A DNA stretch of 64,000 nucleotides from Spirochaetota bacterium (GTDB lineage Bacteria > Spirochaetota > Spirochaetia > SZUA-6), in NCBI GenBank assembly GCA_013151965.1, contig JAADHF010000135.1, forward strand, positions 32,580-96,579. Direction: 5' to 3'. A program made the translations under genes and the position numbers. This document shows, one piece after another, positions 1-47,419 of this stretch. Every line of letters starts with the position of its first letter. Within the stretch, counting starts at the first letter, position 1. The notes below the pieces were generated by a model. The model was not told the origin of the DNA. It did no database searches and was given only the letters and a program-made list of their open reading frames with translations.

Positions 1-405
1 ACACTTATAACACAGCGAATCACCGGAATCGATCAACAGAAACTTATTATTAGAGGAATGCGGGTTGTGGCAGGAGCTGCATTTATCCAGTGTGCCGTGT
101 TTGTACTTCCGTTCGAATTTATTCTTTACATCTTCATGGCAGGTATAACATAAATCAGGTTCTTTTGCTTTTAACCTCAGGCTTCCGACCAGACCATGGC
201 GCTCGTGACAGGCATCACAATTCCCTTTCTCTACAGGCGCATGTATATTCCCTGCTTCCTCAAACTTATTAACTTCCTTTCGATGACAATCCTGGCACGA
301 TCTGGCCGGACGCCTCGGCTGATACGCACACCCGGTAATCAGGGAAGTAAGAGCTCCAACAAAGATGAGGGAAGCAAAAACCATATATTTTCGATTAATC
401 GTCAT
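1..405 (-). CDS. Multiheme c-type cytochrome, lipoprotein (N-terminal 135 aa only; continues past the window start)
   Basis: Manual minus-strand translation from ATG at 405..403 gives MTINRKYMVFASLIFVGALTSLITGC (lipobox), then CQDCH, CDACH, CYTCH, CSSCH and CYKC cut by the window edge. It is absent from the ORF track because there is no stop in the window. It starts 15 nt after the PPIase stop. Confidence 0.8.
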   Translation of the reverse strand, partial: MTINRKYMVFASLIFVGALTSLITGCAYQPRRPARSCQDCHRKEVNKFEEAGNIHAPVEKGNCDACHERHGLVGSLRLKAKEPDLCYTCHEDVKNKFERKYKHGTLDKCSSCHNPHSSNNKFLLIDSGDSLCYKC

Positions 406-420
406 ATTCCCGGTAATCTC

Positions 421-1905
421 CTATTTAATAATTTTCCTGTCGGCATAAAGACCGGCCGACAGAACGTCCTTGTAAATCTTAATTTTGGAGCCTTTTTTAA
501 GAATTTTGATCCATCTCTCTACCTCCGCTTTTCTTTTTATTTTCAGCAGAAGTTCCCTGACCTTTTCATAAACTTCCTTGAAAGGCTGAACCTTTCCTTT
601 CTTAAAATCCTCCGCTTTAAGGATATGCCAGCCGAATCTTGTTTTAACGGGACCGGAAATTTCACCCGGTTTTAAGGAAAAAGCAGCTTTCTCAAATTCC
701 GGAATTACAGTACCCCGGACTATATATCCCAGATCTCCGCCTTTAGAAGCTGAAAAGTCGATAGATTTCTCCCTTGCAAGTACCTTAAAATCCTCTCCCT
801 TCTTTAATTTTTCCAGTATATCCTCCGCCTCTTTTTTGGTGCTCACCAGAATATGTCTTATTTTGACCCTGTCCGGCTCCCTGAACTCATCCTTGTGAGA
901 TTCGTAGTAAGCCTCTGTTTCGTCCTTAGTGAGATGCACACCTTCAATTATTTCTTTATATAGTTTTTCATAGACAGCTTCCCTTTTAAAATTGCGTACA
1001 GCGGCAATGATATCCGGCAGATTATCATATCCCCGTTTCAGGGCTTCCAGCTTAAGAAGCTTCCGGGCTAAAACAAGATCACTGCTGTGATGCGGCATCA
1101 GAGGATCTTTGCCGGCAGATACGGCATATTTCTTTTTTAACTCATCTATAAATTCCTTGTACCTCTTATTTCTCTTTCTTAACTTTAGAATTCGTTTTAT
1201 ATCATTCTTTACCTTGCTAAAATCCTTTTTTTCGAAATTTTCCTTTTCATCCGCCCTCAGGACACAATAATAGCCCGGACGGACTTTAACAGGACCGCTC
1301 ACAGCCCCGGAAGAAAGAGAAAAAACCACTTTTTCGATTTCAGGGTCCAATGTGCCCCACCTTACAAAACCCAACAGTCCTCCCTCAGATGCTGAGGGAT
1401 CGATGGATTTCTCTCTTGCCAGCTCACTGAAATTCCTGCCCTTTCCAAGTTCCTTTAATACTTCTTTCGCTTCCTCCTCGGTCTTAAGAAGAATCCAGCT
1501 TACTTTAACAGCCCTTCCGTAAAACCGGGAATATATCTCTTCGATCTCCGAACCGGAAACAGTAACTTTTTTATTCACCTCATCGTTGTATAATCTGTCG
1601 ATTATTCTATCGGTTCTATACTGATCTGCCTTTCTGATTATCTCAGGGTCTTTATCCAGTCCGATCCGGTATCCCTCCTGAATAATCAGAACTTTATCTA
1701 TCTCTGCATTGAGAAACCTTAACCTGTCGGTTTCGCTTTCCAGCAGGGCCAGGTGTCCCGAATGCCGCTTCTCGAATCTTCCCTTAAGATCCTGCACTGT
1801 TATCGATTCCCCGTTTATCCTGGCAACGACCTGCTTTCCGCCTCCCGGCAAGGAGGTGCACCCGGTAAAATTCAGCAGCAGTAAGATACCCAGAAGCAGC
1901 TTCAC
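421..1905 (-). CDS. SurA/PrsA-like peptidyl-prolyl isomerase lipoprotein with two parvulin (PpiC) domains
   Basis: The N-terminus MKLLLGILLLLNFTGC has a lipobox. There are two PpiC-like segments (VKVSWILLKTEEEAKEV...GPVKVRPGYYCVLR and VKIRHILVSTKKEAEDI...GPVKTRFGWHILK). Confidence 0.85.
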   Translation of the reverse strand: MKLLLGILLLLNFTGCTSLPGGGKQVVARINGESITVQDLKGRFEKRHSGHLALLESETDRLRFLNAEIDKVLIIQEGYRIGLDKDPEIIRKADQYRTDRIIDRLYNDEVNKKVTVSGSEIEEIYSRFYGRAVKVSWILLKTEEEAKEVLKELGKGRNFSELAREKSIDPSASEGGLLGFVRWGTLDPEIEKVVFSLSSGAVSGPVKVRPGYYCVLRADEKENFEKKDFSKVKNDIKRILKLRKRNKRYKEFIDELKKKYAVSAGKDPLMPHHSSDLVLARKLLKLEALKRGYDNLPDIIAAVRNFKREAVYEKLYKEIIEGVHLTKDETEAYYESHKDEFREPDRVKIRHILVSTKKEAEDILEKLKKGEDFKVLAREKSIDFSASKGGDLGYIVRGTVIPEFEKAAFSLKPGEISGPVKTRFGWHILKAEDFKKGKVQPFKEVYEKVRELLLKIKRKAEVERWIKILKKGSKIKIYKDVLSAGLYADRKIIK

Positions 1906-1908
1906 TCT

Positions 1909-3825
1909 TTACCTCTCCCTTTCTTTTATTTTAAACTTTAAAGTCTTTATCCATTTTTCGGCATTATTGACTGCCCGCTGATCATCCGAGTTTTCCGCGA
2001 TATCTTTATATACACTCAAAGCCTTCTCTAAGGACATCTGCTGATAAAATATACCGGCCATATTCATTTTAGCCCTGTCCGCATAGGCACCGCCTAAGGA
2101 AATAAGCTTTTTAAGGGTTTTTACAGCACCCTTTAAATCACCCTGGCTCTTGTATATATTGGCTGTATGGAATAGAGACTTCTCTGTGATTACTTTATCA
2201 TTTCCGGAAGAGATTTTACTGTAAATTTTTAAAGCCTCTGTAAACCTGCCCAGTTCCTCATAGCACCTGGCCACCTTATAAATTATCCTGTCATCAGTCT
2301 TTTCCCCGGCAGCAAAACCGGCCAGTTCGATCAGAGCCTGCCTGTACTTCCCGGAGGAATAGTAAATATCCCCTAACTTAAGCCGAATATCATCCGCACT
2401 CTTACCACTCAGTTTAGATTTATCCGCTTTTAAGAAAAAATTCCGGGCCTGCCCGCGGTCTCCCAGGTTCCAATAAGACAACCCCATCCTGTACTCGATC
2501 TCTTCTATTAATAACCCTTCTGATTTTTCACCGGAAGCCTTCTGAAAAGCTGCTTGAAAGTGACTGATAGACTCTCTCCACCTTTTAAGGTTCTGTAACG
2601 ACAGACCTGCCAGGTATTCCGCCTGCCGGATATTCTTATCGGAAGGGAACTTCTTTATAAAGCCGTACAGGGTTTTCAGAGAATCCTCATAATCTTTAAG
2701 CCGGTACCGGCTTTCTCCCAGGCGCATGACCGCCTCCGGAACAAGCCGGCTTTCAGGATACTTAGTTAAATAATTCTTATAGAAGTCCAGGGCTTTACCG
2801 TATTCTCCTTTATCAAAGAACAGGTTCCCCATCTCCAGGTAAGCATCACCTGCCCACCGGCTATTAGAACCTGCGGCTGCTTTCTGCAGTTCATTAAGAG
2901 CCTTACTGTAATTCTTTAAGATCCTGTTAATGCGGCCGATCCTGAAACGGATTTCCAGTGTCCTGCTGTCCGGATATTTTATCCTGTACCTCTGCCAGGA
3001 AGCCAGAGCTTTATCCTCCATCCCCGACTTTTCATACGAAATCCCCAACATGTACATCAAATTCATAGAGGACTGCCGGTCTGCTGAACTTTTAAGGGCG
3101 TACTCCAGTTTTTGAACAGCTAAATCGTAACTGCCCCTATTGTAGTAAAGCTTTGCCAGCCTGACGCCTATATCTTCTCCGTCATCTGTTTTTACGGCAC
3201 TGCCGGATTTACCGCTGCCGCGGGGCGGATTCCGCAAAGTTAAAAGCATTTCGGCAACAGTCTTTTCTGCCAGGGCATTTACAGAACGTATTTCCCCGAT
3301 ATCTAAAATCGCCGCCCTGTCATCACCATAACGGGAGTTAACCGCCGACCAGATAACCTCACCGCTTTTTGTATCGAGCATACGGGCATCTATCCTTACT
3401 GCCGGAATTCCTTTTTTCGGGCCGCTTACTTCTTCCCCGTATTCCTCCACAGATCCCACAATGACACCACCGGCATTAAGTTCTTTCCTGAAAGCATAGA
3501 GCGTCTCGAAGTCGATCTCCCCTTTTACCTTAACTCTTTTTTCCAGGAGGAGAGCACGTGCATCACCCGGTTTTACAATCCCGAATCTTCCCATTTTGTT
3601 TAATTCAACTACAAACATATTCCTCACAACATCGCCTGCGCCTTTGCTGCCGCTTAAGTTTTCGAAAGGAAGGACAGCAATCAATTTTAAATCCTTCCAG
3701 TCTTTATCTTTCTTCATATATATACCTGGATGCATACAGGCATTCAAAAAGGACATGAGCATCACAACAAGCAAGATTCTTCCCGTCCTGATGAGGATTT
3801 TTTTTTGACTTAAAATGAGCTTCAT
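1909..3825 (-). CDS. Lipoprotein: N-terminal CsgG/LpoB/TolB-N-like domain fused to a long TPR array
   Basis: The start is re-called at the internal Met (MKLILSQKK...LMSFLNAC lipobox), 1 nt after the upstream stop at 3827..3829. The N-terminal domain IAVLPFENLSGSKGAGDVVRNMFVVELNKMGRF...VIVGSVEEYGEE...ARMLDTKSGEVIWS is paralogous to the two upstream genes. The remainder is TPR-like repeats. Confidence 0.7.
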   Translation of the reverse strand: MKLILSQKKILIRTGRILLVVMLMSFLNACMHPGIYMKKDKDWKDLKLIAVLPFENLSGSKGAGDVVRNMFVVELNKMGRFGIVKPGDARALLLEKRVKVKGEIDFETLYAFRKELNAGGVIVGSVEEYGEEVSGPKKGIPAVRIDARMLDTKSGEVIWSAVNSRYGDDRAAILDIGEIRSVNALAEKTVAEMLLTLRNPPRGSGKSGSAVKTDDGEDIGVRLAKLYYNRGSYDLAVQKLEYALKSSADRQSSMNLMYMLGISYEKSGMEDKALASWQRYRIKYPDSRTLEIRFRIGRINRILKNYSKALNELQKAAAGSNSRWAGDAYLEMGNLFFDKGEYGKALDFYKNYLTKYPESRLVPEAVMRLGESRYRLKDYEDSLKTLYGFIKKFPSDKNIRQAEYLAGLSLQNLKRWRESISHFQAAFQKASGEKSEGLLIEEIEYRMGLSYWNLGDRGQARNFFLKADKSKLSGKSADDIRLKLGDIYYSSGKYRQALIELAGFAAGEKTDDRIIYKVARCYEELGRFTEALKIYSKISSGNDKVITEKSLFHTANIYKSQGDLKGAVKTLKKLISLGGAYADRAKMNMAGIFYQQMSLEKALSVYKDIAENSDDQRAVNNAEKWIKTLKFKIKERER

Positions 3826-3826
3826 T

Positions 3827-4390
3827 CTAAAATTCCGGTATGGAAGCAACCATTTTCCTGATAATAATCCGCGACAACTCCTGGGCGGTAGAGACCTTGC
3901 CGAAACCGAAGAACCCCTTAAAATCCTCGCCCGTATATGCAAGGGAACTACTCCATAAAATATCGGTTGTGTTGAGATCGATCATAACCAGATTGATTCC
4001 CACTTCAGGGTTTTCTCCCGAGTCATACTGCTCCACACGGCCTATAATAAGCCCCTCGATTCCGAGCTCTTTCTTTAGCTTTCGTGCCAGGGAGGTCGAT
4101 ACCATGTCCAGACACCGCAGTCTTTCCATTTCCAGAAACTTCTCCACCTTTCCCGGATCTGTCAAAATATACCTGCCGGACTTTAAAAGTTCCAGCTTCA
4201 GAACATTCCCGACCTTCTCTTCCGCAAGGAAGCTGCCGCTCAAGTTTACCAATGGCATGACCCCTATTTTAATTCTCTGCACTTCCTTTTTACTTCCGGA
4301 GGAATAGGAAAACACAGGACAGACCATCAAAATTATAAACACGGCAATTGCAACCGGGATCCTTAACAGATATTTTCCCGTAAAGCACAC
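3827..4390 (-). CDS. Secreted/lipoprotein, CsgG/LpoB-like single-domain paralogue
   Basis: It has a hydrophobic N-terminus. IGVMPLVNLSGSFLAEEKVGNVLKLELLKSGRY...LIIGRVEQYDSGENPEVGINLVMIDLNTTDILWS matches the shared motif pattern of its neighbours. It lies 2 nt from the upstream gene. Confidence 0.6.
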   Translation of the reverse strand: MCFTGKYLLRIPVAIAVFIILMVCPVFSYSSGSKKEVQRIKIGVMPLVNLSGSFLAEEKVGNVLKLELLKSGRYILTDPGKVEKFLEMERLRCLDMVSTSLARKLKKELGIEGLIIGRVEQYDSGENPEVGINLVMIDLNTTDILWSSSLAYTGEDFKGFFGFGKVSTAQELSRIIIRKMVASIPEF

Positions 4391-4392
4391 AT

Positions 4393-4998
4393 CTATTTCT
4401 CCGCAGGAATTTGTATGACAAGCGACCTCACCATCTGCCTGATCACTTTTCGGGTAAGTTCGCTTATATAAGGGGTTTCACCGATTCCCAGAAAGCTGAC
4501 CGTAGATCCCCCGCCCTCCGAGTTACTGCTCATCCAGATAACGATATCTGTATTTGTATCTACCATACGCAGGTTAATGGCTACTTCGGGAAAAGATCCC
4601 GCCCCTGTAGAAACGGATTTATTGTATTCCTCGACAACACCAAAGATGATAGCCTGAACACCGAGGCTCTTTCCAAGCTTTTTAATCATGGATGCATCGA
4701 TATTATCCGGCTTATCGATCTTCATTTCACTTAACACTTTTTCCATTTCACCGAATTCCAGCACATCGAAGTAACCCAATGACAAAAGCTCGGTAACAAA
4801 TATGTCCCTGACTTTTTGTTCGGCATGCGGACTGTCCGTCAGATTTAAAAACGGCATTACCGCGACCCTTTTAATGGACAAAAAATCTGCGTTCGGATGG
4901 ACATAGGATTTGGACCGAATCCCTGCGCATCCCTCGATTATCACAAGTGAAAGAATTAACACGCTTGCAGTCAGCAGGTTTTTCATTATACTCACCAA
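4393..4998 (-). CDS. Lipoprotein, CsgG/LpoB-like single-domain paralogue
   Basis: The signal peptide and lipobox are LSLVIIEGC. VAVMPFLNLTDSPHAEQKVRDIFVTELLSLGYF...IIFGVVEEYNKS...PEVAINLRMVDTNTDIVIWM follows the same pattern as 3827..4390 and the N-terminus of 1909..3825. Confidence 0.6.
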   Translation of the reverse strand: MVSIMKNLLTASVLILSLVIIEGCAGIRSKSYVHPNADFLSIKRVAVMPFLNLTDSPHAEQKVRDIFVTELLSLGYFDVLEFGEMEKVLSEMKIDKPDNIDASMIKKLGKSLGVQAIIFGVVEEYNKSVSTGAGSFPEVAINLRMVDTNTDIVIWMSSNSEGGGSTVSFLGIGETPYISELTRKVIRQMVRSLVIQIPAEK

Positions 4999-5080
4999 AT
5001 CCTTTATATTTCACAGTTTTATCAGCGATATTAAGCACAGGCAGAGACTTAGGCCGATTATACAAAGCCCCCCCTCTTAT

Positions 5081-5545
5081 TCAGGGGTACAACCTCCGTC
5101 CGGTGTCATGGCAGCCGCTCTGATTGCAGCTTATATAATCCCCCCCTGTGGTTAAAAATCCCATTCCCGTTCCCAGGGATGAAGAACTCTTTTCACCATA
5201 CAGTATCGTAAAATAGTACCGCTCATCGGTGTCGAGACCGGTTATAACAAAATTACCGAAACTATCCGTCTCCGCCTTAAAAAAACTCTTGTTGTCATCC
5301 GACACAGCCGTAACCACAGCTCCTTCGGCTGCAGAACTGCCGATGAGGTCTATAAAAACCGTCCCGGCAGCTGTGTCGGCCTCATACGTTCCCATATTGA
5401 ATTCTGTTCCTCTGGTTTCGTGACACGGACTATAGCAGTCATATCCGTTCTTGTGATATGAACTGTTTCCGGATGAGGTCGACTCAATATTACAGGCCGT
5501 AATAAACATTAAGCTTACTATCAGGCATCCTAAACGTATCTTCAT
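5081..5545 (-). CDS. Small lipoprotein with CX3CH and CX4CH motifs flanking a carboxypeptidase-regulatory-like beta-sandwich segment
   Basis: MKIRLGCLIVSLMFITAC has a lipobox. The motifs are CYSPCH (CX3CH) and CNQSGCH (CX4CH). The middle segment FFKAETDSFGNFVITGLDTDERYYFTILY looks like a CarboxypepD_reg-type fold. It is the first gene of the minus operon. Confidence 0.55.
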   Translation of the reverse strand: MKIRLGCLIVSLMFITACNIESTSSGNSSYHKNGYDCYSPCHETRGTEFNMGTYEADTAAGTVFIDLIGSSAAEGAVVTAVSDDNKSFFKAETDSFGNFVITGLDTDERYYFTILYGEKSSSSLGTGMGFLTTGGDYISCNQSGCHDTGRRLYP

Positions 5546-5562
5546 CCTTGTATTCTGAGATT

Positions 5563-5591
5563 ATTTTATAAAAAAAAAGTCAATATGTCAA
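5563..5591 (-). promoter_or_regulatory. Candidate sigma70 promoter for the minus-strand lipoprotein/PPIase/cytochrome operon
   Basis: On the minus strand: TTGACA (5591..5586), 17-nt spacer, TAAAAT (5568..5563). The ATG of 5081..5545 lies about 18 nt downstream of the -10. Confidence 0.4.
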
Positions 5592-5609
5592 GAAACCGAG
5601 TATTTTTTC

Positions 5610-5637
5610 TTGACATTATATTTATTTATGCTAAAAT
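5610..5637 (+). promoter_or_regulatory. Candidate sigma70 promoter for the cytochrome/beta-barrel/ccsBA operon
   Basis: TTGACA (5610..5615), 16-nt spacer, TAAAAT (5632..5637), about 105 nt upstream of the ATG at 5744 in an AT-rich divergent intergenic region. Confidence 0.45.
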
Positions 5638-5743
5638 ATTCACGATAAGTAAATAAACTAAGTATATGTGTTCTTTTATAAATTAAATTACTGTTATTTT
5701 GATTAAGAATGCAGATTTATGCTTTTTAGAGGAGGGTAAGTGT

Positions 5744-6721
5744 ATGAGAAAAAAATTGATTCTTTCCATCTGTGCGGTTGTGTTTCTGGCCTATCCAGTC
5801 CTGGCGGTTCACAAAGGAGCCGGCGGACTGGACTGTTCCGGGTGCCATATTATGCACGGCAGCGTGGATGGTACGAATGTGGGCACACAGGACTATCTGC
5901 TCAGAGGCTCTACGCAGTCTCTCTGCCTTTCCTGTCATGACAGTACAGGATCTAACTATACAACCTATTCAGGTACAGTCCCGGTAGTTAAGGATGCCAC
6001 AGACAGCCCTGCAAGCGGAGACTTTGCGAATCTGGACCCGACCAACGATGCACCGGGCACCCTTAATTCGGGCAATGGCCACAACCTTGGTGAGGGCGGA
6101 AGCTCTGTAACCCCGGCAGGCGGATCTCCAATCTCCGGCTTTACATGCACTAACTGCCACGATCCCCATGGTGCGGGAGCCACGGACACCTCTACTGTAT
6201 CTGCTTACAGGAACCTTAAATTTACACCTGTGGGGGGAAGCACAACGGTATCGGTAATAAGGGCTCTGCCCCTGGAAGGTACTTTAAGCGGCGATGTGTA
6301 TCCGTTAGCTGACAATTCCTATGGTACCGCCGGAGCCGGAATAAGCAACATATCAGCCTGGTGCGGCTCCTGCCACACTAACTTCTTCGGTGATGCCAAT
6401 ACGGGAACCGGTTCCCCATTTACCAGACACCCGACATCCAATAGTACGACACTGTATACGCTTGGTGATGTCGATTTCAGCAACTATTATGCAGTTGCCG
6501 AAGGCAGCAGGTACCCTGCCGAAGATACGGCATCGAGCACTAACGCTAACTCCGGTAACGCCACCAACAAGTCCGCGGGGAACGAGGCTACCGACAGTGT
6601 TTTCTGTCTTTCCTGCCATAAGCCCCATGCCAGTGCGAATCCCGATGCTCTGCGGTGGAGCTATGCTCAGACAGCTCAATTATCCCCGGCCAGTGCCTGC
6701 CAGCAGTGCCATAACAAATAA
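5744..6721 (+). CDS. Secreted hexaheme c-type cytochrome, OmcS-like
   Basis: The start is re-called at MRKKLILSICAVVFLAYPVLA (GGAGGG RBS upstream). There are six CXXCH motifs (CSGCH, CLSCH, CTNCH, CGSCH, CLSCH, CQQCH). The mature protein has exactly 12 Cys and 12 His. The motif order and flanks (VHKGAGGLDCSGCHIMHGS, LLRGSTQSLCLSCH, CTNCHDPHG, AYRNL, WCGSCH, RHP, CLSCHKPHAS, CQQCH at the C-terminus) resemble OmcS as I recall it. Confidence 0.85.
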   Translation: MRKKLILSICAVVFLAYPVLAVHKGAGGLDCSGCHIMHGSVDGTNVGTQDYLLRGSTQSLCLSCHDSTGSNYTTYSGTVPVVKDATDSPASGDFANLDPTNDAPGTLNSGNGHNLGEGGSSVTPAGGSPISGFTCTNCHDPHGAGATDTSTVSAYRNLKFTPVGGSTTVSVIRALPLEGTLSGDVYPLADNSYGTAGAGISNISAWCGSCHTNFFGDANTGTGSPFTRHPTSNSTTLYTLGDVDFSNYYAVAEGSRYPAEDTASSTNANSGNATNKSAGNEATDSVFCLSCHKPHASANPDALRWSYAQTAQLSPASACQQCHNK

Positions 6722-6741
6722 AAAACAAAGTGCGATTTTAA

Positions 6742-6781
6742 GTATAGATCATCCCGGTTAAATCCCGGTGATGATCTATAC
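6742..6781 (+). other. Intercistronic stem-loop (perfect 12-bp inverted repeat)
   Basis: GTATAGATCATC (6742..6753) pairs with GATGATCTATAC (6770..6781). The 16-nt loop CCGGTTAAATCCCGGT can itself pair CCGG/CCGG. There is no downstream T-tract. It lies between the hexaheme gene stop and the beta-barrel start. Confidence 0.5.
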
Positions 6782-6808
6782 AACATTTCCAAACAGGCGC
6801 GGAGCAAT

Positions 6809-8485
6809 ATGAGGAAGTACATATCCACAGTCCCGGCTGTTGTATTGGCAGTATTTTTAACAGCCAATATCTGTTACGGGGAGCTGCAGGGGGTTATGTC
6901 CCTGACTACACGGAGCAGGGTTGATACTGACAGTACAAAGACATGGACTTATGCTCCGTTTCTGAATATAAACTTCCAGGATCAGATAGCTGCCGGAACC
7001 AGGATTACAACAGGACTCCAGGCCCAGCTTGGCAGCTCACAGACCGAAGGGTATAAACCTTTATATACAGGAAGGCTCTTTCCGTCCTTCGATTTTACTA
7101 CGAGCAACAGCCGGTACAGTTTTAACGGCGGCTACCGTCATATCATCAATTCCGGCGAATCCGAAGTCCCCTTCCTCATAGAGGAGTTAACCCAGACACA
7201 ATTATTTTATTCAGGCTTGTCGCTTCCGCTTTCGGATCTTCCTTCTTTTAACCTGCAGGGCAGGCAAATTCATAATTTCAGCCTGAACGGGACAAAAAAT
7301 GATTTAAGGGATTCGATAGGCTTAAACTCCGGTTACTCTGCAGGCTTATTCGATATTTCGGTTAATGCAGGGTGGAATAGATATAAGGACTACATCAATC
7401 TATCAGGAGGAATTCCATACGAAGAGAACAACTTTAATGAAACAGTAAATACAAACATAAATTATCAGCCGGCTTCCAGGATAACAGTCAAAGGGAAAGC
7501 AGGCTTAAGCGGGTATCAGAGCAGACGCGGATTTGCAAATAACACCGATCTAAACAGAAACAGCAGTTACTACACCGATTCCACATTATTACTCAAGTTT
7601 ACGGACAGTGTCTCGACAACCGGAAATCTCTCCTGGAACCGAACGGACAGAGAAACGGAAACCGGAAGTACGGTTACAAAACTTCCGCCTGTGGAATCCA
7701 TAAGGGGCGGGGGAGGGATTTATCTTAAACTCTACAAGTTTCTTTTTTCCAATATCAGCTACCAGGGACAGTGGCAGATCGGAGAGAATGCAGCTGTCAA
7801 TACAGCAGGTATCGGATTGGATTTTATTCCTTTTAAAACCATGAAAACATCCCTTGTCTATGGTCTTTCGGAAACAAGCAGGGACTCCGGGAAACTTACA
7901 AGGTCGGACAAGATTTCCTTTTCTGCAAAGGGAAAGGTCTATGACAGGGTAGATATAAACTCCTTCTTGCAGTACAATCGTATCGATGACTATAAGCAGG
8001 ATGTAATCATGACACTCTGGATGGCGGGTTCCAAAATTAAATCCAGACTGATCGATGATTGGCTGGTTAAAAGCATGGACGTCCAGGCGGGATACAACAG
8101 GATGTGGCAGATAATCGATCTCGGAGGGGAAAGAGAGGTTTTAATTATCGATGTTACAAATATTTCCGTACATTCCAGGATGACAAGGGTAATCGGGATC
8201 TCGGGGAAATGGAGCTGGAATAATAAACCCGGCGGGCTTAGTTTAACCCAGCAGTATGCCATGGAGTGGCTTCCGTTAAAAAAAATGCGGCTTAGCGTGG
8301 GGTATGGGATCACCGGCAGCACGGATAAAAGTATAAAGGAGGATATATCCGCCAGAGCAAATTTATCACTCCCGAAGAATTATACACTGTCGGCTGCTTT
8401 CGGCAGCGTTCTTAACAGGGATAATCCGGAGTCTCCCAGGAACGGATCGTACACATTTTCGGCAACAATCTCGGCGAGTTTTTAA
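6809..8485 (+). CDS. Outer-membrane beta-barrel protein (porin-like), unknown family
   Basis: It has a signal peptide (MRKYISTVPAVVLAVFLTANICYG), many short alternating amphipathic strands rich in Y/G/S/N/T, and a C-terminal ...YTFSATISASF ending in Phe, which is an OMP beta-signal. It sits between two multiheme cytochrome genes. Confidence 0.65.
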   Translation: MRKYISTVPAVVLAVFLTANICYGELQGVMSLTTRSRVDTDSTKTWTYAPFLNINFQDQIAAGTRITTGLQAQLGSSQTEGYKPLYTGRLFPSFDFTTSNSRYSFNGGYRHIINSGESEVPFLIEELTQTQLFYSGLSLPLSDLPSFNLQGRQIHNFSLNGTKNDLRDSIGLNSGYSAGLFDISVNAGWNRYKDYINLSGGIPYEENNFNETVNTNINYQPASRITVKGKAGLSGYQSRRGFANNTDLNRNSSYYTDSTLLLKFTDSVSTTGNLSWNRTDRETETGSTVTKLPPVESIRGGGGIYLKLYKFLFSNISYQGQWQIGENAAVNTAGIGLDFIPFKTMKTSLVYGLSETSRDSGKLTRSDKISFSAKGKVYDRVDINSFLQYNRIDDYKQDVIMTLWMAGSKIKSRLIDDWLVKSMDVQAGYNRMWQIIDLGGEREVLIIDVTNISVHSRMTRVIGISGKWSWNNKPGGLSLTQQYAMEWLPLKKMRLSVGYGITGSTDKSIKEDISARANLSLPKNYTLSAAFGSVLNRDNPESPRNGSYTFSATISASF

Positions 8486-8492
8486 AAATATT

Positions 8493-9824
8493 ATGATTGA
8501 TAAAAGATTTTTAATAACTTCAGTTTTGATTATTCTGATATCCGGTCTCTCACCGGTGATATACGGGGATGATGTATTTACTCAGACCGAACACGGAGGA
8601 ACAAACATAAATTCCGATGCCTATGTCCTCGCAGGTTCCTGCGGAACCTGTCATACACAGCACAACAGCCAGGACGGTGCGCCTGTATCCGGAAGCGGAC
8701 CGTTTAAATATCTTCTTAACGGCGCCAATAATAACAGCTTCTGCACTAACTGCCACCTGGACAGTTCGATAGGTACTCCTCCGGGAAGGCCCCCTTTTGA
8801 AAAACTATGGGCCGGTGAAACAAAATATAACGCATCGGCACACGGCACAAGCCTCTTTAAGACTAATCCGGACACGGGATTCGATCTGCCGCTCTGCCTG
8901 GCATGTCATGATCCCCACGGCAGAGGAACGGGTACTCCTTACCCCGCTCTTCGTGCCAATAATGAGGAAAACCTCTGCTATGCCTGCCACGACAGCAATG
9001 GGCCCGCTCAGAATGATATAAAATCAAAGATGCAGGGAACCGCTACATCCACAAGCCCCGTATCCGGAAGTTCGGCCAAAATTAATACCCGCCATGATAT
9101 AAGTCTCTCCGATCAAAACTGGAGCGGAGCAAAGATAGAATGCAAAGACTGCCACAACCCTCATCTTAACAACAGTAGTTATAACGGAGTGGATAAATCC
9201 AGGGTGCGTGATCCGGCCGTCGATCCTTCTACGGCTGCAGGCGCAGCAAACTTTATCGACACCTACAATGTAAATGACCCTGACAGGCCCGGAGATTTAG
9301 ACCCCAACATTTTACCGGAATCTCCTGCCAGTCCGGTACCGGATTATATAGATTTCTGCCTGGTGTGCCACGACGGCAGCTACCCTTCCTGGATTAATCC
9401 CGGAACCAACCCGCCGGCTGTTATAAACTGGGAATCCACAAGCGGAAATTATCACGGCGGCAAGTACGGAGGCGGGAACTCCGGCCAGGGTTACCTTAAA
9501 AGCCGGACAGTCGGGGATCCGGGTTATGTGGCAGGCTACACAGGAGCGGATTACCAGAATCCGGGCTCATATACTGCTGCAGATTCTTATGCTCCGATGC
9601 TCTGCACGGACTGTCATGATCCCCACGGAGTTAACAACAATCTTTTTATGATTAAAAAAACAATCAACGGAAAATCGGGCATAACCTGGACGAACGGCGG
9701 AGTAATATATTACAAAATGTGTACCGCCTGTCACAAAATGACAGGCAAAAAGCACACTATGAAATATGGTGAATCATCGACCTGCAGCCGGCAGTTTCAC
9801 TCACATACAGGAAGCGACTTTTAA
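8493..9824 (+). CDS. Secreted octaheme c-type cytochrome (N-terminus paralogous to the hexaheme)
   Basis: It has a signal peptide and eight CXXCH motifs (CGTCH, CTNCH, CLACH, CYACH, CKDCH, CLVCH, CTDCH, CTACH). The N-terminal TEHGG...CGTCHTQHNS...YLLNGANNNSFCTNCH parallels the first two heme sites of 5744..6721. Confidence 0.85.
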   Translation: MIDKRFLITSVLIILISGLSPVIYGDDVFTQTEHGGTNINSDAYVLAGSCGTCHTQHNSQDGAPVSGSGPFKYLLNGANNNSFCTNCHLDSSIGTPPGRPPFEKLWAGETKYNASAHGTSLFKTNPDTGFDLPLCLACHDPHGRGTGTPYPALRANNEENLCYACHDSNGPAQNDIKSKMQGTATSTSPVSGSSAKINTRHDISLSDQNWSGAKIECKDCHNPHLNNSSYNGVDKSRVRDPAVDPSTAAGAANFIDTYNVNDPDRPGDLDPNILPESPASPVPDYIDFCLVCHDGSYPSWINPGTNPPAVINWESTSGNYHGGKYGGGNSGQGYLKSRTVGDPGYVAGYTGADYQNPGSYTAADSYAPMLCTDCHDPHGVNNNLFMIKKTINGKSGITWTNGGVIYYKMCTACHKMTGKKHTMKYGESSTCSRQFHSHTGSDF

Positions 9825-9855
9825 CAGCATGTTCCCCGCGCGGAGAGGCGGTATA

Positions 9856-10335
9856 ATGGCCGTACCGGACAGAAAATCTATAATAACCGGTCTTATCTTT
9901 ATCCTGGTAATCGCAGGCACAGGAACTTTATATATAATTTATTCAGCGAATCTAAGATCCGGACAGGCAGCCGGCCATTTGAGCCGGGGGATAGGATACA
10001 TAAAAAACGGAAAGAATATAGAAGCGGTAACCGAACTAGAAAAAGCTATTTCCATAAAACCCGGCCTGTGGAAGGCATATTACTACCTCGGAGGAATCTA
10101 CCTTAAGAAGAACATGCTCTCCGAGGCCGGAAAAGAATTCGCAAAGGCCCTGAAACTGAAACCCGCCATGCCGGAAATTTATAACGCTCTGGGAATCGTT
10201 TATTTTAAAATGGGTAAAGTGGATGCGGCAACTGCCTATTTCCAGGCATCCCTAAGACTGAATCCCTTAAACGAACAGGTAAACGCTATCCTGGAAACAA
10301 TAAACGGCAGGGGAATGAAACAGACAAAAAAGTGA
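9856..10335 (+). CDS. Membrane-anchored TPR protein
   Basis: MAVPDRKSIITGLIFILVIAGTGTLYIIY is an N-terminal TM segment, followed by 3-4 TPR motifs (KAYYYLGGIYLKKNMLSEAGKEFAKALKLKP...). An alternative start is at 9829. Its stop overlaps the GTG start of ccsB. Confidence 0.7.
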   Translation: MAVPDRKSIITGLIFILVIAGTGTLYIIYSANLRSGQAAGHLSRGIGYIKNGKNIEAVTELEKAISIKPGLWKAYYYLGGIYLKKNMLSEAGKEFAKALKLKPAMPEIYNALGIVYFKMGKVDAATAYFQASLRLNPLNEQVNAILETINGRGMKQTKK

Positions 10336-11675
10336 AGGTATATAAATTTTTAATATCACCGAAGTTTGTCATTCTCCTTCTTCTTGCTATATCCGTCCTC
10401 TCGATACTGGGAATATTTATACCCCAGGGAGAGGGAGATTTATTTTATGCCAAACACTACGGGCTGGGAAAGGCAGTGCTCTTTTTAGGATTAAACAACC
10501 TGTACAATCTCTGGTTTTATAAACTGTTGTACTTGTTCCTCGGCATCGATCTGATCCTGTGCTCGGTGAAAAGAATAGGATACCTGCGTAAGATATTTTC
10601 TAATCCTGAGGAAGAATTAAATCTGAAACCGAACCGTTATGAGAAAAAAATAAGGCTTGACGGCGGTATTCAGGATACGGCTGTTAAGATTTGCAGGCTC
10701 CTTAAACACTCGTTCTACAGAGTTAAAAGCAAAAGAATCGATAACGGAAATAAAACATCCATTCTCGCAGGCAGAGGGAAAATAAGCACCTTTGGAAGTA
10801 CCATAGTCCATGGCGGTATTTTAATCATAATATTTTACACTTTTTTTTGGGGCACATCCGGATACGGGCGCTATGTTAAAATCGTGGAGGGAAACAGTTA
10901 TGTCGAACCCTCTGAAAATTTTCTGGTAAGAGTGGACAAGATAAGACTGGACTACTACAAACCTGGAAAAGATGTGTCTTCTGCCGGTGAGTTTCGATTA
11001 AAGAATGCCCAGGCGACGCTGTCTGTTTTAAAAGACGGTAGTTCTGTGCAGACAACCAGAACACTTAGAATCGGCGAAAGATTAAAATACAAAGGCATAA
11101 ACTTTAAACTGGATTACAAAGGATTCGGATGGGCATATAGAATACTGCTTACCAATTCGTCCGGCTGGCAATGGACCCTCTCCGTCTGGCCATGGAACCC
11201 GGTAATTTCCCTGTCAAAATTAAACTGGATGATATACCTGCATAATCTTTATCCTGATTTTGCACTGGATGATAAAGGAAATCCTTATTCCAAAACTCCC
11301 TACCTCCGAAATCCTGCAGCTAAAATCTGGATTCAGCAGGGAACAAAGAAACCGGAGCTTATCGGATGGTTAAAGTCCGATGCACCCTTGAAGTTTAAAG
11401 GTTATACTCTGAAGATGGTCGATCTTCGGCCCTACGCTTCCGTTTATGTCAGTAAAAAGCCCGGTATTCCATTTATCTGGGCCGGCTTCGGATTAATTAT
11501 TGCCGGCCTGTTATTGATATACGGCCTGGATTACAGAATAATCAGGATAATAGTTTCAACCGGCAGAGGGGCAGAAGACATACTGATAACCGGTACAAGT
11601 ACAAAAACGGGCAACAATCTCAAAAAGGATATCGAGACTATTGCTGCCGGAATAGAAGCCGGAAAGGAGTTATGA
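10332..11675 (+). CDS. ccsB: Cytochrome c biogenesis protein CcsB/ResB (System II)
   Basis: The GTG start overlaps the upstream stop. The ResB-like N-terminus is FLISPKFVILLLLAISVLSILGIFIPQG. It has a large soluble loop and a C-terminal TM (GIPFIWAGFGLIIAGLLLIYG). It is immediately upstream of ccsA with an ATGA overlap. Confidence 0.85.
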   Translation: MKVYKFLISPKFVILLLLAISVLSILGIFIPQGEGDLFYAKHYGLGKAVLFLGLNNLYNLWFYKLLYLFLGIDLILCSVKRIGYLRKIFSNPEEELNLKPNRYEKKIRLDGGIQDTAVKICRLLKHSFYRVKSKRIDNGNKTSILAGRGKISTFGSTIVHGGILIIIFYTFFWGTSGYGRYVKIVEGNSYVEPSENFLVRVDKIRLDYYKPGKDVSSAGEFRLKNAQATLSVLKDGSSVQTTRTLRIGERLKYKGINFKLDYKGFGWAYRILLTNSSGWQWTLSVWPWNPVISLSKLNWMIYLHNLYPDFALDDKGNPYSKTPYLRNPAAKIWIQQGTKKPELIGWLKSDAPLKFKGYTLKMVDLRPYASVYVSKKPGIPFIWAGFGLIIAGLLLIYGLDYRIIRIIVSTGRGAEDILITGTSTKTGNNLKKDIETIAAGIEAGKEL

Positions 11676-12475
11676 TGGGTATTGAATCAATTTTTTTAAG
11701 TATAGCCTTCGCTTCATATTTTTTAGCTGCAATCGCTTATGTTATATTTTTAGTTACAAAATGGGAACCGGCCGGGAAAACCGGCAGCCTTATCGCCTTT
11801 GCAGGACTGATCTGCCACACTATTGCCCTTGTGTCCCGTATAATCATAGCGAAACGCCTCGTGGGCTACAACTTTTACGAATACATGTCCGTATTCGCCT
11901 GGGGTACAGTCCTGGTATACCTGATTGCGGAAAGGAAAACAAAGCTCAGAATTATCGGCGTATTTGTACTTCCTGTAGTAATCCTGCTTCTGGGCTATGC
12001 CTCCGTACTGCCGAAAAATATAACACCCCTTGTTCCGGCTTTAAGGAGTTACTGGCTGCAGATCCACATTATTACTACGGTAGTATCATACAGCTCATTT
12101 ACTCTCTCCTTTGGTGCAGGGATAATATACCTTATAAGAAAAAAACTGCCTTTTAAGGCAGAAACCGGTGCACTGGAGATAGTTATATCCAGGGCTATAA
12201 TTTTCGGTTTTCCCTTTCTGACCATCGGCATCCTTTCCGGCGCAATCTGGGCTCAATATATCTGGAACAGGGCATGGAGCTGGGACCCCAAGGAAACCTC
12301 CTCCCTGGTTACCTGGTTGGTCTATGCCGCTTATCTCCATACCAGGCTTGCAAGGGGATGGAGCGGGAAACGTGCTGCAATTTTAAGTATCATAGGCTTT
12401 GCCTGCGTTATTTTTACCTACCTGGGGGTGGACCTTCTTGTTCCCAGGGCTCATACCTTCCTTTTTAACAAATAA
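11672..12475 (+). CDS. ccsA: Cytochrome c-type biogenesis protein CcsA/ResC (heme handling, WWD motif)
   Basis: It is polytopic. The Trp-rich heme-handling motif is GAIWAQYIWNRAWSWDPKETSSLVTWLVYAAYLH. Confidence 0.9.
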   Translation: MMGIESIFLSIAFASYFLAAIAYVIFLVTKWEPAGKTGSLIAFAGLICHTIALVSRIIIAKRLVGYNFYEYMSVFAWGTVLVYLIAERKTKLRIIGVFVLPVVILLLGYASVLPKNITPLVPALRSYWLQIHIITTVVSYSSFTLSFGAGIIYLIRKKLPFKAETGALEIVISRAIIFGFPFLTIGILSGAIWAQYIWNRAWSWDPKETSSLVTWLVYAAYLHTRLARGWSGKRAAILSIIGFACVIFTYLGVDLLVPRAHTFLFNK

Positions 12476-12574: not shown

Positions 12575-13576
12575 ATGACAAAAGATCCCGCCGGACAAAA
12601 AGCAGTGCTTCTTAAGCGAGCCGATATTTTTTCATCCCTTATTCCCCATGAGATAGAAGTTATTGCCTGGAACAGTGATTTTTACGACTATAAAACCGGT
12701 GACCCGGTTTTTTCCAGGGGGGACCCCGGCAATACCCTCTATATCGTAGAATCCGGCGAAATCGTAGTTCAGAAGCAGGATGAGTCCGGCCGGAAAACCG
12801 ATATAGCCCGTTTTGTCCAGGGCAACTGTTTCGGAGAACTCGATCTGTTCACCGGAACATCCAGAATTGCTTCCGCTTTCGCATCTGTCGAAACACGGCT
12901 TTTGGAATTTCCCAAATCCGGCATAGAATTTACAGCGATTCTCGATAAACATCCGGCTCTGTCTGCCCGGATCCTCCACAAAATTCTAGCGGAGATTGCC
13001 GTGCGAATCCGCAGGGCCAACACCCTCATCAAAGAGAATTCTCCCCTGGTGCAGGAAATGAGAAGGCAGGTGTATAGAGACAAGCTTACAGGGTTATTTA
13101 ATCGAACCTATCTCTTAGAAAAAATAAGGGAACTTATCGATAAAAACAGTTCCGGCTTTTCTCTTCTGATAACAAAACCGGACAATTTTAAGGCTTTAAA
13201 CGACACTTACGGCCACGAAGCGGGAGACACGGCTATCAGCATTATGGCAAGGGGATTACGGGATTTTATCGGGGATGACAACAGGACAGCAAGGTACAAG
13301 GGTAATGCCATGGCAGTACTTATTCCGGGGGGTACAAAAGAGGAAGCTTACAACCAGGCTCTGCGTATCCGGGAATTCATGAACAACCTCGATGTAACCG
13401 GAGCAACGAAAGGAAAGGAATTCCGCATTACCGCCAGCACCGGCATCGCATGTTTCCCTGACCACGGCATTAACGCTGAAGATCTTGTATTTAAAACTCA
13501 TGAGCTTTCTCTTGCAGGCAGACGCAGGGGGGGAAATCTCATCCTGTTTCCGGAAGATGCCGGGGAGCGGAAATGA
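12575..13576 (+). CDS. Cyclic-nucleotide-binding domain protein with a degenerate GGDEF domain
   Basis: The cNMP-binding signature is GNCFGELDLFTGTSRIASAFA. The GGDEF fold is present (LTGLFNRTYL, FKALNDTYGHEAGD), but the active-site pentapeptide is KGNAM (ARYKGNAMAVL) and no RxxD I-site is in register. Confidence 0.8.
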   Translation: MTKDPAGQKAVLLKRADIFSSLIPHEIEVIAWNSDFYDYKTGDPVFSRGDPGNTLYIVESGEIVVQKQDESGRKTDIARFVQGNCFGELDLFTGTSRIASAFASVETRLLEFPKSGIEFTAILDKHPALSARILHKILAEIAVRIRRANTLIKENSPLVQEMRRQVYRDKLTGLFNRTYLLEKIRELIDKNSSGFSLLITKPDNFKALNDTYGHEAGDTAISIMARGLRDFIGDDNRTARYKGNAMAVLIPGGTKEEAYNQALRIREFMNNLDVTGATKGKEFRITASTGIACFPDHGINAEDLVFKTHELSLAGRRRGGNLILFPEDAGERK

Positions 13577-14550
13577 AAAGGACTCCCGTTGATGTACTTA
13601 GATCGATCGAAATTCTCTCTTCTCTTTCCCGGGAAGAACTGGATTCGCTTTATTCACTTATGAACACCGAAGAATACCTAAAAGGGCAAACCCTTTTCAA
13701 CGAAGGCGATAACGGCGAAATCATGTATATCATACTTTCCGGATCGGTTTCCATATCCGTAAATCTGCCGGACGGGAAAGTGCTGGAGATCGCAGAGATT
13801 ACAGAGGGTAATTTCTTCGGGGAGATGTCCATTTTCGACAGTGCGGCAAGGTCCGCTACATGCTCTCCTAAATGCGACACAAAAGTACTCAGCCTTAAAG
13901 CAGGTGATTTTTACAAATTCATAAAAAACAAACCGGAGGCCGGTATAAATATCATGCGCCGTATGCTGAATATTACCACCATGCGTCTTGAAAAAACCGG
14001 TGCATTTCTGTCGGATATGGTCACCTGGGGAGAACAGGCAAGGACCCGGGCAATTACCGATGATTTTACAGGGCTGTATAACCGCCGGTTTCTCGATGAG
14101 GCAATAAAAGACCGTATTACCGAGGCAATGGATAAAAGCCTTCCTCTCTCCATTGTCATGATCGATCTGGATCATTTCGGAACATTGAACAATGAATACG
14201 GACAGGATATGGGAGACAGGGTAATCCTGGCAATTGTCCCGATTTTCAGAAAACTGTTTAGAAAGGAAGATATTCTTGCCCGGTACGGAGGTGATGAGTT
14301 TACCTTTCTTCTGCCCGGAACTACGGGCGCAGAAGCCCGGGATATCTGTTCGAAGCTGGTAAGGGAAGTCCGGAAAATCGACCTGCTTAAGAATCTCGAC
14401 GGATCGCTGAAGAAAGTTACTGCCAGTATCGGCATCGCATGTTTTCCTGATCATGCCGACTCGGCTTCCCGGATCAAAGAAAGGGCCGACCAGGCACTCT
14501 ACAAGGCAAAGGAAGCCGGGCGGGATACCGCAGTTCTCTGGACAAACTAA
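13573..14550 (+). CDS. Cyclic-nucleotide-binding domain diguanylate cyclase (intact GGDEF and I-site)
   Basis: The cNMP-binding signature is GNFFGEMSIFDSAARSAT. The GGDEF domain has RKED (RxxD) five residues before ARYGGDEF. It has an ATGA overlap with the upstream paralogue. Confidence 0.85.
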   Translation: MKRTPVDVLRSIEILSSLSREELDSLYSLMNTEEYLKGQTLFNEGDNGEIMYIILSGSVSISVNLPDGKVLEIAEITEGNFFGEMSIFDSAARSATCSPKCDTKVLSLKAGDFYKFIKNKPEAGINIMRRMLNITTMRLEKTGAFLSDMVTWGEQARTRAITDDFTGLYNRRFLDEAIKDRITEAMDKSLPLSIVMIDLDHFGTLNNEYGQDMGDRVILAIVPIFRKLFRKEDILARYGGDEFTFLLPGTTGAEARDICSKLVREVRKIDLLKNLDGSLKKVTASIGIACFPDHADSASRIKERADQALYKAKEAGRDTAVLWTN

Positions 14551-14561
14551 AGGGAGGGTAC

Positions 14562-47346: not shown

Positions 47347-47419
47347 TGGAGGATAGGGGATTCGAACCCCTGACCTATAGATTGCGAACCTATCGCTCTG
47401 CCGACTGAGCTAATCCCCC
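47347..47419 (-). tRNA. tRNA-Ala (anticodon CGC)
   Basis: The reverse complement GGGGGATTAGCTCAGTCGGCAGAGCGATAGGTTCGCAATCTATAGGTCAGGGGTTCGAATCCCCTATCCTCCA folds as a 73-nt cloverleaf. The anticodon loop is TTCGCAA. The G3:U70 alanine identity pair and the GGTTCGAAT T-loop are present. CCA is not encoded. Confidence 0.9.

Follow-up and report, generated by a model that had tools for sequence, protein, structure and literature searches.

A compact, rearranged osc-type locus for a presumed OmcS-family cytochrome filament in an uncultured Spirochaetota bacterium

In Geobacter sulfurreducens the nanowire subunit OmcS is accompanied by the osc (omcS-companion) cluster, GSU2493-GSU2504 (Shen et al. 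2025, Cell Chem Biol 32:239). Papers citing that work attribute folding to OscH, secretion to OscEFG and morphology to OscD. These sources describe an 'eight gene block GSU2500-GSU2493' in Geobacter and its relatives, identify GSU2495 as the 26-heme cytochrome OscI, and present the system, published in 2025, as already widespread. The G. sulfurreducens proteins as modelled have 473 amino acids (aa) for OscD, 701 for OscE, 169 for OscF, 367 for OscG, 548 for OscH, 627 for OscI and 260 for OscK (PMC13194489 supplement). Comparable parts are known from two other systems. Twelve PelC subunits make up a ring at the periplasmic side of the PelB barrel, with the tetratricopeptide repeats (TPRs) of PelB docked inside it (PMC12141448). 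The omcE nanowire clusters, which in Desulfuromonadia neighbour resB/ccsB, combine the subunit gene with genes for other multiheme cytochromes, for propeller lipoproteins and for a large barrel (bioRxiv 10.1101/2025.10.22.684050). Here we analyse a stretch of 64,000 nucleotides (nt) from a Spirochaetota bacterium (assembly GCA_013151965.1, contig JAADHF010000135.1, positions 32,580 to 96,579; hereafter the window), whose positions 1-12475 encode an OmcS-family hexaheme cytochrome, a large beta-barrel, three PelC-like lipoproteins, a peptidyl-prolyl isomerase (PPIase) and further multiheme cytochromes. This locus is probably an orthologue, compact in form and rearranged, of the osc system by which OmcS-type cytochrome filaments are built outside the cell.

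The presumed filament subunit is a hexaheme cytochrome of 325 aa (5744-6721, plus strand) with a mature length of ∼304 aa. When all PDB sequences were searched with phmmer, OmcS (6EF8/6NEF) was its sole significant match (E=3e-8). A profile built from 15 short-form relatives, and free of OmcS itself, matched OmcS residues 3-348 over profile positions 29-311 (E=1.4e-25), the runner-up in the PDB being NrfA (E=1.8e-4). We then aligned 17 database homologues with the window protein and the OmcS sequence recovered from the phmmer match. The first five heme motifs, which lie within the recovered OmcS sequence, and five distal histidines were invariant; the sixth motif, beyond the recovered OmcS fragment, was kept in all other aligned sequences, and together with a sixth distal histidine it is invariant across the 15 short-form family members. 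The column of OmcS His16, three residues past the first CXXCH, is likewise invariant, reading CSGCHIMH in the window protein and CEGCHTMH in OmcS. From the 6EF8 structure we take this histidine to ligate heme 5 of the next subunit, with no heme partner in its own chain, and His38 of the window precursor to be its equivalent. The window protein contains exactly 12 histidines, six in the motifs and six others (H23, H38, H113, H142, H229 and H295), a number that provides for bis-His ligation of all six hemes. In the alignment it is ∼100 residues shorter than OmcS and lacks several loops. The family to which it belongs comprises 379 database clusters at E<=1e-3, and both its ∼300-aa and its ∼420-aa forms are spread over many phyla. 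A first-pass annotation made from the DNA had called the cytochrome OmcS-like, and both the OmcS-free profile and the conserved distal-histidine columns bear this out.

Related loci were collected in a one-genome-per-species scan, which yielded 175 OmcS-family loci; 80 were kept and 77 fetched. The scan pattern, CL[ST]CH[FKY][AP]H[GA], misses the CLSCHRAHA of OmcS itself. As G. sulfurreducens was not among the 80 kept loci, Geomonas loci were used as reference osc clusters. By tblastn the first and second window lipoproteins, the N-terminal domain of the TPR-containing lipoprotein, the PPIase and the cytochrome at the left edge of the window match these loci in the same order. After the PPIase, the Geomonas loci continue with a 26-heme protein of ∼657 aa, a 16-heme protein of ∼425 aa and an NHL protein of ∼299 aa. 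The gene order in osc loci is a ∼475-aa propeller, a 700-750-aa protein, a ∼190-aa lipoprotein, a ∼365-aa two-domain lipoprotein, the PPIase, the 26-heme cytochrome, the 16-heme cytochrome and the NHL protein, and the sizes in Geomonas agree with those of G. sulfurreducens OscD to OscK. On this basis the genes of the window can be assigned to OscE (6809-8485), OscF (4393-4998), an OscG split between 3827-4390 and the N-terminal domain of 1909-3825, OscH (421-1905) and the N terminus of OscI (1-405).

The association is not confined to these genomes. Among the 33 OmcS-family loci flanked on either side by a full 10 kb, the lipoprotein domain was present in 26, the barrel family in 24 and the PPIase in 19. 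Synteny of lipoproteins and PPIase with OmcS-family cytochromes had been set as a test beforehand, and the first and last of these counts bear it out. The loci are distributed over Ignavibacteria, Nitrospirota, Acidobacteriota, Planctomycetota, Schekmanbacteria, Deferribacteres, Anaeromyxobacter and a metagenome-assembled genome (MAG) labelled Spirochaetes. The closest relatives of the window locus come from MAGs labelled Spirochaetes and Elusimicrobia, the closest complete one being L053/L003 in a MAG labelled Spirochaetes, with a hexaheme cytochrome 56% identical to that of the window. There, genes for a 26-heme lipoprotein, a 16-heme cytochrome and an NHL protein come after that of the PPIase; the last two, corresponding to OscJ and OscK, are present in L053, L004, L006 and L007.

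The suggestion in the first-pass annotation that the PPIase and lipoprotein core follows the logic of the Geobacter omcS companions thus agrees with the identical gene order in the Geomonas osc loci. Other proposals in it have to be revised. Its 'undescribed variant' of a filament assembly system maps instead, one gene after another, onto the published osc gene set, and the three channel-like proteins of that set, which had been equated with the three lipoproteins, correspond to the OscE barrel, OscF (169 aa) and the two-domain OscG (367 aa). The locus is, as far as its genes reveal, a rearranged example of the published osc system with lineage-specific rearrangements, not a new system.

A further expectation concerned propellers, of which the first-pass annotation saw none. 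This is true of the whole 64 kb, but the window edge cuts the cluster inside the OscI orthologue. Because the window ends 135 residues into that protein, the missing 16-heme and NHL genes, counterparts of oscJ and oscK, may be merely out of view to the left of coordinate 1. OscD is expected elsewhere: the ∼475-aa proteins before the barrel in L050, L013 and L115, where OscD should be, are YNCE/lactonase-type propellers. The closest complete relative, L053, has no OscD-type propeller within 10 kb, and such a protein could be encoded at another site.

One relative shows a different layout. In L001 (GCA_964449965.1, 1-21074), which was fetched apart from the 77 loci, the hexaheme cytochrome is 58% identical to that of the window, and no PelC-like or PPIase genes were found within 10 kb. 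Two further cytochromes, a downstream resB-ccsA pair, a 1042-aa cytochrome with 21 paired-CXXCH units and NHL proteins are present, with a sigma-54 two-component pair upstream. The gene for the OmcS-type subunit is therefore not always next to those for the machinery.

The gene directly after the hexaheme gene (6809-8485, plus strand) encodes a predicted outer-membrane beta-barrel of 558 aa. AlphaFold2 (AF2) gave 28 long strands with a mean predicted local distance difference test score (pLDDT) of 75, and the C terminus, ...SATISASF, resembles that of outer-membrane proteins. No Pfam family matched at E up to 0.1. In a Foldseek search with the model, the top match was MtrB (6r2q_B; E=1e-10, TMq 0.51), ahead of the FimD/PapC ushers and LptD; as MtrB_PioB (PF11854) does not match the protein, its resemblance to MtrB is structural only. 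A word-indexed search returned only three near-identical homologues. An exhaustive HMMER search found five relatives among 1.84 billion (1.84e9) representatives. When the five-member profile was run on the open reading frames (ORFs) of the fetched loci, 22 proteins matched. A second profile, made from these 22, matched the genes directly upstream of the lipoproteins in L004, L006, L007 and L009 (Geomonas, Geobacteraceae and related) with E values of 1e-33 to 1e-65; the barrel genes of these four loci were absent from the profile when scored. In most osc loci the barrel homologues have 700-750 aa and are encoded immediately upstream of the lipoprotein genes, and the L053 barrel is 24% identical to that of the window.

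It had been proposed that the barrel is an intercalated, additional part. Because the profile matches the genes directly upstream of oscF in the Geomonas and Geobacteraceae loci, this proposal does not hold. We predict the 558-aa protein to be an OscE that has been shortened and now belongs to the operon of the subunit. In osc clusters the barrel is a core component, from a family that evolves fast and is too divergent for ordinary searches, which matters for how these clusters are read, and automated annotation of osc clusters likely misses it.

Three minus-strand genes encode paralogous lipoprotein domains that are 30-34% identical and share the motifs VAVMPF..NLS, GxVEEY and RMVD..T..ILW. 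The first (4393-4998, 201 aa) is the OscF equivalent. The second (3827-4390, 187 aa), 34% identical to its paralogues, matches Pfam LpoB weakly; it has a signal sequence, but its lipobox, LMVC, is doubtful. For the third (1909-3825) the realistic start is the ATG at 3825 and not the ORF maximum at 3942, and the lipobox FLNAC follows. Its PelC-like domain covers approximately residues 28-176 and continues into ∼450 aa of TPR, which matches many Pfam TPR families alongside a weak CsgG match. This TPR fusion in the last of the three paralogues, noticed at first pass, is supported by the Pfam TPR families and the paralogue alignment of the N-terminal domain.

When the window paralogues were combined with their relatives into a profile, its best match was PelC (9H80, chain 9h80_C, E=5.7e-11; also 5T11, 5T10 and 5T0Z). 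GNA1162 came next, and LpoB reached only E=0.16. The AF2 model of the first lipoprotein (pLDDT 82) is a compact alpha/beta domain of ∼170 aa, and in a Foldseek search with it PelC chains ranked first (E=1e-11, TM-score 0.75-0.83 normalised to the target). CsgG chains gave TM-scores of ∼0.45 with root-mean-square deviations of 10-13 Å, and the Pfam CsgG (PF03783) match is partial, covering model positions 28-142 of 210. In CsgG itself each subunit contributes two transmembrane hairpins to a 36-strand channel. A CsgG-like channel was considered and is ruled out by the PelC-first ranking of both profile and Foldseek together with this partial match. The 'CsgG/LpoB-like' label given to the lipoproteins at first pass is accordingly replaced by PelC-like.

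With the first lipoprotein as query, a word-indexed search returned nine homologous proteins. Correspondence with the reference cluster was clear by tblastn against the Geomonas locus L006: the first lipoprotein matched a 189-aa protein (E=4e-24), the second the first domain of a 365-aa protein (E=1e-11), and the N-terminal domain of the TPR lipoprotein the second domain of that protein (E=2e-12). In L053 the TPR fusion protein is of equal length (619 aa) and OscG is split alike. Some Nitrospirota and Thermodesulfovibrionia osc loci (L026, L070 and L077) have four successive PelC-like domains, not three, so that lineages differ in how many ring paralogues they encode.

The window lipoproteins are structural relatives of PelC and not a Pel component, and no pel genes were found in or next to the locus. 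By analogy, the window encodes the kinds of parts known from PelBC (ring-type lipoproteins, TPRs and a barrel), and the lipoproteins may form a ring. Our literature search found no link between PelC and osc proteins; it did not cover Shen et al. 2025, which may already state one.

Downstream of the lipoproteins, the gene at 421-1905 (minus strand) encodes the OscH equivalent, a lipoprotein PPIase with a SurA-like N-terminal domain and two parvulin domains (Pfam Rotamase 1.5e-44, SurA_N weak). Searched at full length by tblastn, it matched the PPIases that follow the lipoproteins in osc loci (L053, E=2e-96; L006, 5e-18; L009, 2e-19). A metagenome scan with the same protein gave 33 loci with generic parvulin PPIases, none in an osc context. 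The last minus-strand gene (1-405) is cut by the window edge, leaving the N-terminal 135 aa of a lipoprotein cytochrome with four CXXCH motifs and the lipobox LITGC. This fragment is 41% identical to the N terminus of the 643-aa, 26-heme lipoprotein of L053 (E=9e-27) and also matches the 26-heme proteins after the PPIase in Geomonas loci (L006, E=2e-16). It is a predicted orthologue of the 26-heme OscI (GSU2495). The OscI-type cytochrome has a lipobox both in the window and in L053 (14876-16807), and the signal peptide of its Geomonas counterpart (L006, 4792-6765) is of the ordinary kind; for GSU2495 the listed location is the periplasm.

In the ORF map, positions 1-12475 form two tightly packed divergent operons of six minus-strand and six plus-strand genes. 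The intergenic gaps are, in order, 15, 3, 1, 2, 82, (198), 87, 7, 31, -4 and -4 nt; gaps of only 1 to 15 nt argue for an operon of the minus-strand genes, and the arrangement supports co-expression of the predicted components. The 198-nt spacer (5546-5743), a predicted divergent promoter region, is 76.8% A+T compared with 54.9% for the region. The two best sigma-70-like matches of 13 kb (11/12 each) sit back to back inside it, TTGACA-16-TAAAAT at 5610-5637 on the plus strand and TTGACA-17-TAAAAT at 5591-5563 on the minus strand, and GGAGG precedes the ATG at 5744. The first-pass description of two packed divergent operons around a 198-bp AT-rich region is thereby borne out, every listed ORF being present and both the gaps and the A+T content having been measured. 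In Geobacter, omcS is under riboswitch control; the intergenic region 5546-5743 gave no Rfam match to a riboswitch. An identical divergent layout occurs in L116, a contig from another sample that is 87-89% identical to the window and includes the small lipoprotein with both of its unusual motifs.

This small lipoprotein of 154 aa (5081-5545, minus strand, lipobox FITAC) carries a CX3CH motif (CYSPCH) and a CX4CH motif (CNQSGCH) on either side of a beta-sandwich-like domain, for which Pfam CarboxypepD_reg scored 3.7e-4, below cutoff. It may be a diheme accessory protein. The L116 protein is 87% identical and keeps both motifs; 113 other loci yielded no homologue.

On the plus strand the barrel gene is followed by that of an octaheme cytochrome (8493-9824, 8 CXXCH motifs). 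Its N-terminal module, CxxCHTxHNSQ...LLxG...CxxCH, is shared with OmcS and holds two hemes, and the remainder of the protein differs. Alignment with the OmcS family by hhalign gave a probability of 98.3% (E=2e-14) over CGTCHTQHNSQ...LLNG...CTNCH, and BLASTP against the window hexaheme gave E=1e-6. A sequence search of the PDB with the octaheme protein returned nothing meaningful. In L114 a 442-aa cytochrome is encoded after the barrel homologue, and related genes are present in L051 and L019. We speculate that the octaheme protein may be a second filament-type subunit or an adaptor.

The remaining three plus-strand genes encode a membrane-anchored TPR protein (9856-10335; Pfam TPR families, with TPR_CcmH_CycH at 0.0024, below cutoff) and the System II cytochrome c biogenesis proteins CcsB/ResB (10332-11675; Pfam ResB 7.3e-38) and CcsA, the heme-handling/lyase subunit (11672-12475; TIGR03144 at 226.9 bits against a cutoff of 187.6, Pfam Cytochrom_C_asm 1.7e-48). 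The TPR gene overlaps ccsB by 4 nt and is translationally coupled to it; its product is possibly an apocytochrome chaperone. Only 3 of the 77 fetched loci have CcsA adjacent to the OmcS-family gene. Calling the CcsBA pair private to this locus, as at first pass, overstates what a single window can tell.

Beyond the cytochrome locus, 99 nt downstream of ccsA and on the same strand, 12575-15740 encodes two tandem cNMP-binding-GGDEF proteins and a DHH/DHHA1 phosphoesterase, which may constitute a cyclic-nucleotide regulatory unit beside the locus. At 24122-26461 a 779-aa protein with a weak spermine-synthase domain is weakly similar (tblastn E=4e-7) to a 1008-aa spermine-synthase-domain protein in a Schekmanbacteria osc locus (L013, 4326-7352), whose size is near the 1017 aa reported for OscB (PMC13194489 supplement). 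The 779-aa protein may be a displaced OscB-like gene product, or the match may be coincidental. A LolA-like lipoprotein-sorting protein and a 970-aa MMPL/RND-type transporter at 17408-21057 (minus strand) have no visible relation to the cytochrome locus. A search of the 64 kb for RNA genes gave a single tRNA-Ala (CGC) at 47347-47419 and no rRNA.

Starting from what is observed, namely the homology of each part and the conservation of the module across phyla, we infer the following route for the window proteins. The hexaheme protein and the other cytochromes would be exported by Sec, and heme would be attached by the co-transcribed CcsBA, possibly aided by the membrane TPR protein. In the periplasm the OscH-like lipoprotein PPIase would fold the loop-rich subunit with its low secondary structure. 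By analogy with PelC on PelB, the three PelC-like lipoproteins could form a ring at the inner face of the outer membrane, with the TPR arm as a docking rail as in PelBC. This ring would sit beneath the large OscE-like barrel, through which subunits or the growing filament would pass. Polymerisation would proceed head to tail, His38 of the precursor (in CHxxH, the equivalent of OmcS His16) ligating heme 5 of the neighbouring subunit. Electrons would be fed to the base of the filament by the 26-heme OscI-like lipoprotein and perhaps by the octaheme protein. That filaments form from this locus is itself a prediction.

Several points weigh against this account. The locus is known from genes alone, and the Osc assignments rest on gene order, protein sizes and secondary sources. 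Of the four G. sulfurreducens paralogues, only OmcS itself is known to polymerise, and wire formation is reportedly hard to predict reliably from sequence alone. The window subunit is ∼100 residues shorter than OmcS, and its interfaces may differ. A tblastn search with the ∼475-aa propellers found no OscD-type propeller in the 64 kb (best E above 1), no NHL propeller is encoded within the same 64 kb, and the window ends inside oscI, placing the OscJ and OscK positions beyond view. Finally, the barrel model, built from an alignment of 8 sequences, is of moderate confidence at its pLDDT of 75, and its top structural match, MtrB, suits a porin-cytochrome conduit equally well.

Such a conduit without filaments is the main rival to the osc-type filament system, and we regard it as unlikely, though the likeliest of the alternatives. 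In it the barrel would enclose a multiheme cytochrome, either the octaheme or the 26-heme protein, in the way that MtrB encloses MtrA; the hexaheme protein would be a monomeric surface or periplasmic carrier, and the lipoproteins and PPIase would only assist assembly. In its favour, the barrel model is structurally most similar to MtrB of the Mtr complex, the locus has genes for several multiheme cytochromes side by side, and most OmcS paralogues are not known to polymerise. However, the barrel has no sequence match to Pfam MtrB_PioB and is homologous to OscE of a nanowire cluster, and the module is orthologous to one that, in secondary sources, is needed for the folding and secretion of OmcS filaments. 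The hexaheme protein, moreover, keeps the inter-subunit histidine (OmcS His16) and has exactly 12 histidines for six hemes.

Somewhat less probable still is a distinct osc sub-type. Here the outer-membrane gate would resemble PelBC, with a hetero-oligomeric ring of three PelC-like paralogues, one bearing the TPR rail, under an MtrB/usher-sized barrel, the octaheme protein, with its OmcS-like donor-histidine module at the N terminus of a different body, would serve as a dedicated filament base, adaptor or cap, and the 304-aa subunit would be a minimal OmcS-type wire. If true, the role of the octaheme protein would address how cytochrome filaments start or stop.

The similarity to Pel invites a different reading, in which the lipoproteins, TPR protein and barrel are an exopolysaccharide export gate that merely lies beside cytochrome genes. 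Among solved structures PelC stands nearest to the lipoproteins, in sequence as well as in fold, and TPRs, barrel and lipoprotein ring together make up the PelBC architecture. Nevertheless, neither a glycosyltransferase nor a PelA/D/E/F/G-like or other polysaccharide synthesis gene occurs in or next to the locus, the barrel, with ∼28 strands against 16 in PelB, is encoded separately from the TPRs, and the module accompanies OmcS-family genes in dozens of unrelated genomes, all of which make an export gate of this kind very improbable. Least credible of all is chance adjacency or generic envelope housekeeping, with a SurA/PpiD-type general chaperone and lipoproteins unrelated to cytochromes, for although many metagenome contigs lacking a cytochrome context encode parvulin PPIases that reach 47% local identity, the best full-length matches are osc-linked PPIases (E=2e-96 in L053), the genes are separated by gaps of 1 to 15 nt, and the order lipoproteins-PPIase-26-heme is conserved across phyla, a synteny that largely refutes this view.

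The osc-type filament system to which the locus is assigned is already published. To it the window adds a clean, small example of the OmcS/osc nanowire type from an uncultured lineage. The 304-aa subunit with exactly 12 histidines could serve structural studies or engineering as a candidate minimal OmcS-type wire. PelC-like OscF and OscG together with an OscE of MtrB/usher/LptD size give a concrete, testable picture of how a heme-loaded filament may cross the outer membrane, the least understood step.

Set beside described systems, the window locus resembles individual parts of several of them. The very large barrel next to multiheme cytochromes, and the top Foldseek matches, recall the MtrCAB conduits and the chaperone-usher ushers (6R2Q, 3RFZ). 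In contrast to these, the window barrel matches neither MtrB_PioB nor an usher family in Pfam, no usher plug or N- and C-terminal domains were identified in it, and the accessory proteins differ. The omcE clusters share the barrel, the multiheme cytochromes and the resB/ccsB neighbour, but OmcE is a tetraheme protein of another family, and the PelC-like/PPIase module that belongs to the window locus is not part of omcE clusters as described. With PelBC of Pseudomonas aeruginosa (9H80; PelC 5T0Z/5T10/5T11) the window has in common the lipoprotein fold, similarity at the profile level and the list of parts. It differs in having three paralogues instead of one PelC, in the fusion of the TPRs to a lipoprotein and not to the barrel, in a barrel of ∼28 strands instead of 16 with unrelated sequence, and in its cargo, presumably a heme protein and not a polysaccharide; the ring is known for PelC and predicted for the window lipoproteins. 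The hexaheme protein resembles the OmcS nanowire subunit (6EF8/6NEF) in the order of its CXXCH motifs, in its distal histidines including the equivalent of His16, and in the GDF and RHP motifs, and the two can be aligned from one terminus to the other, whereas it is only ∼26% identical, ∼100 residues shorter with loops deleted, and a filament subunit by prediction.

The closest counterpart is the osc cluster of G. sulfurreducens. Both have an OmcS-family hexaheme cytochrome, an OscE-type barrel, OscF- and OscG-type domains, a double-parvulin OscH and, as judged from the 135 N-terminal residues in the window, a repeat-built multiheme cytochrome of OscI type, and the order lipoproteins-PPIase-OscI is identical. 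In contrast to the osc cluster, the genes of the window locus are shared out between two divergent operons, that of the barrel having moved beside that of the subunit, and its OscG is split into two genes, the second of which is fused to ∼450 aa of TPR. The barrel has 558 aa rather than 701 and the mature subunit 304 aa rather than 407, OscI is lipidated as judged from its lipobox, and no OscD-type propeller is encoded in the 64 kb. To the shared set the window adds the octaheme cytochrome, the small CX3CH/CX4CH lipoprotein, the membrane-anchored TPR protein and ccsBA.

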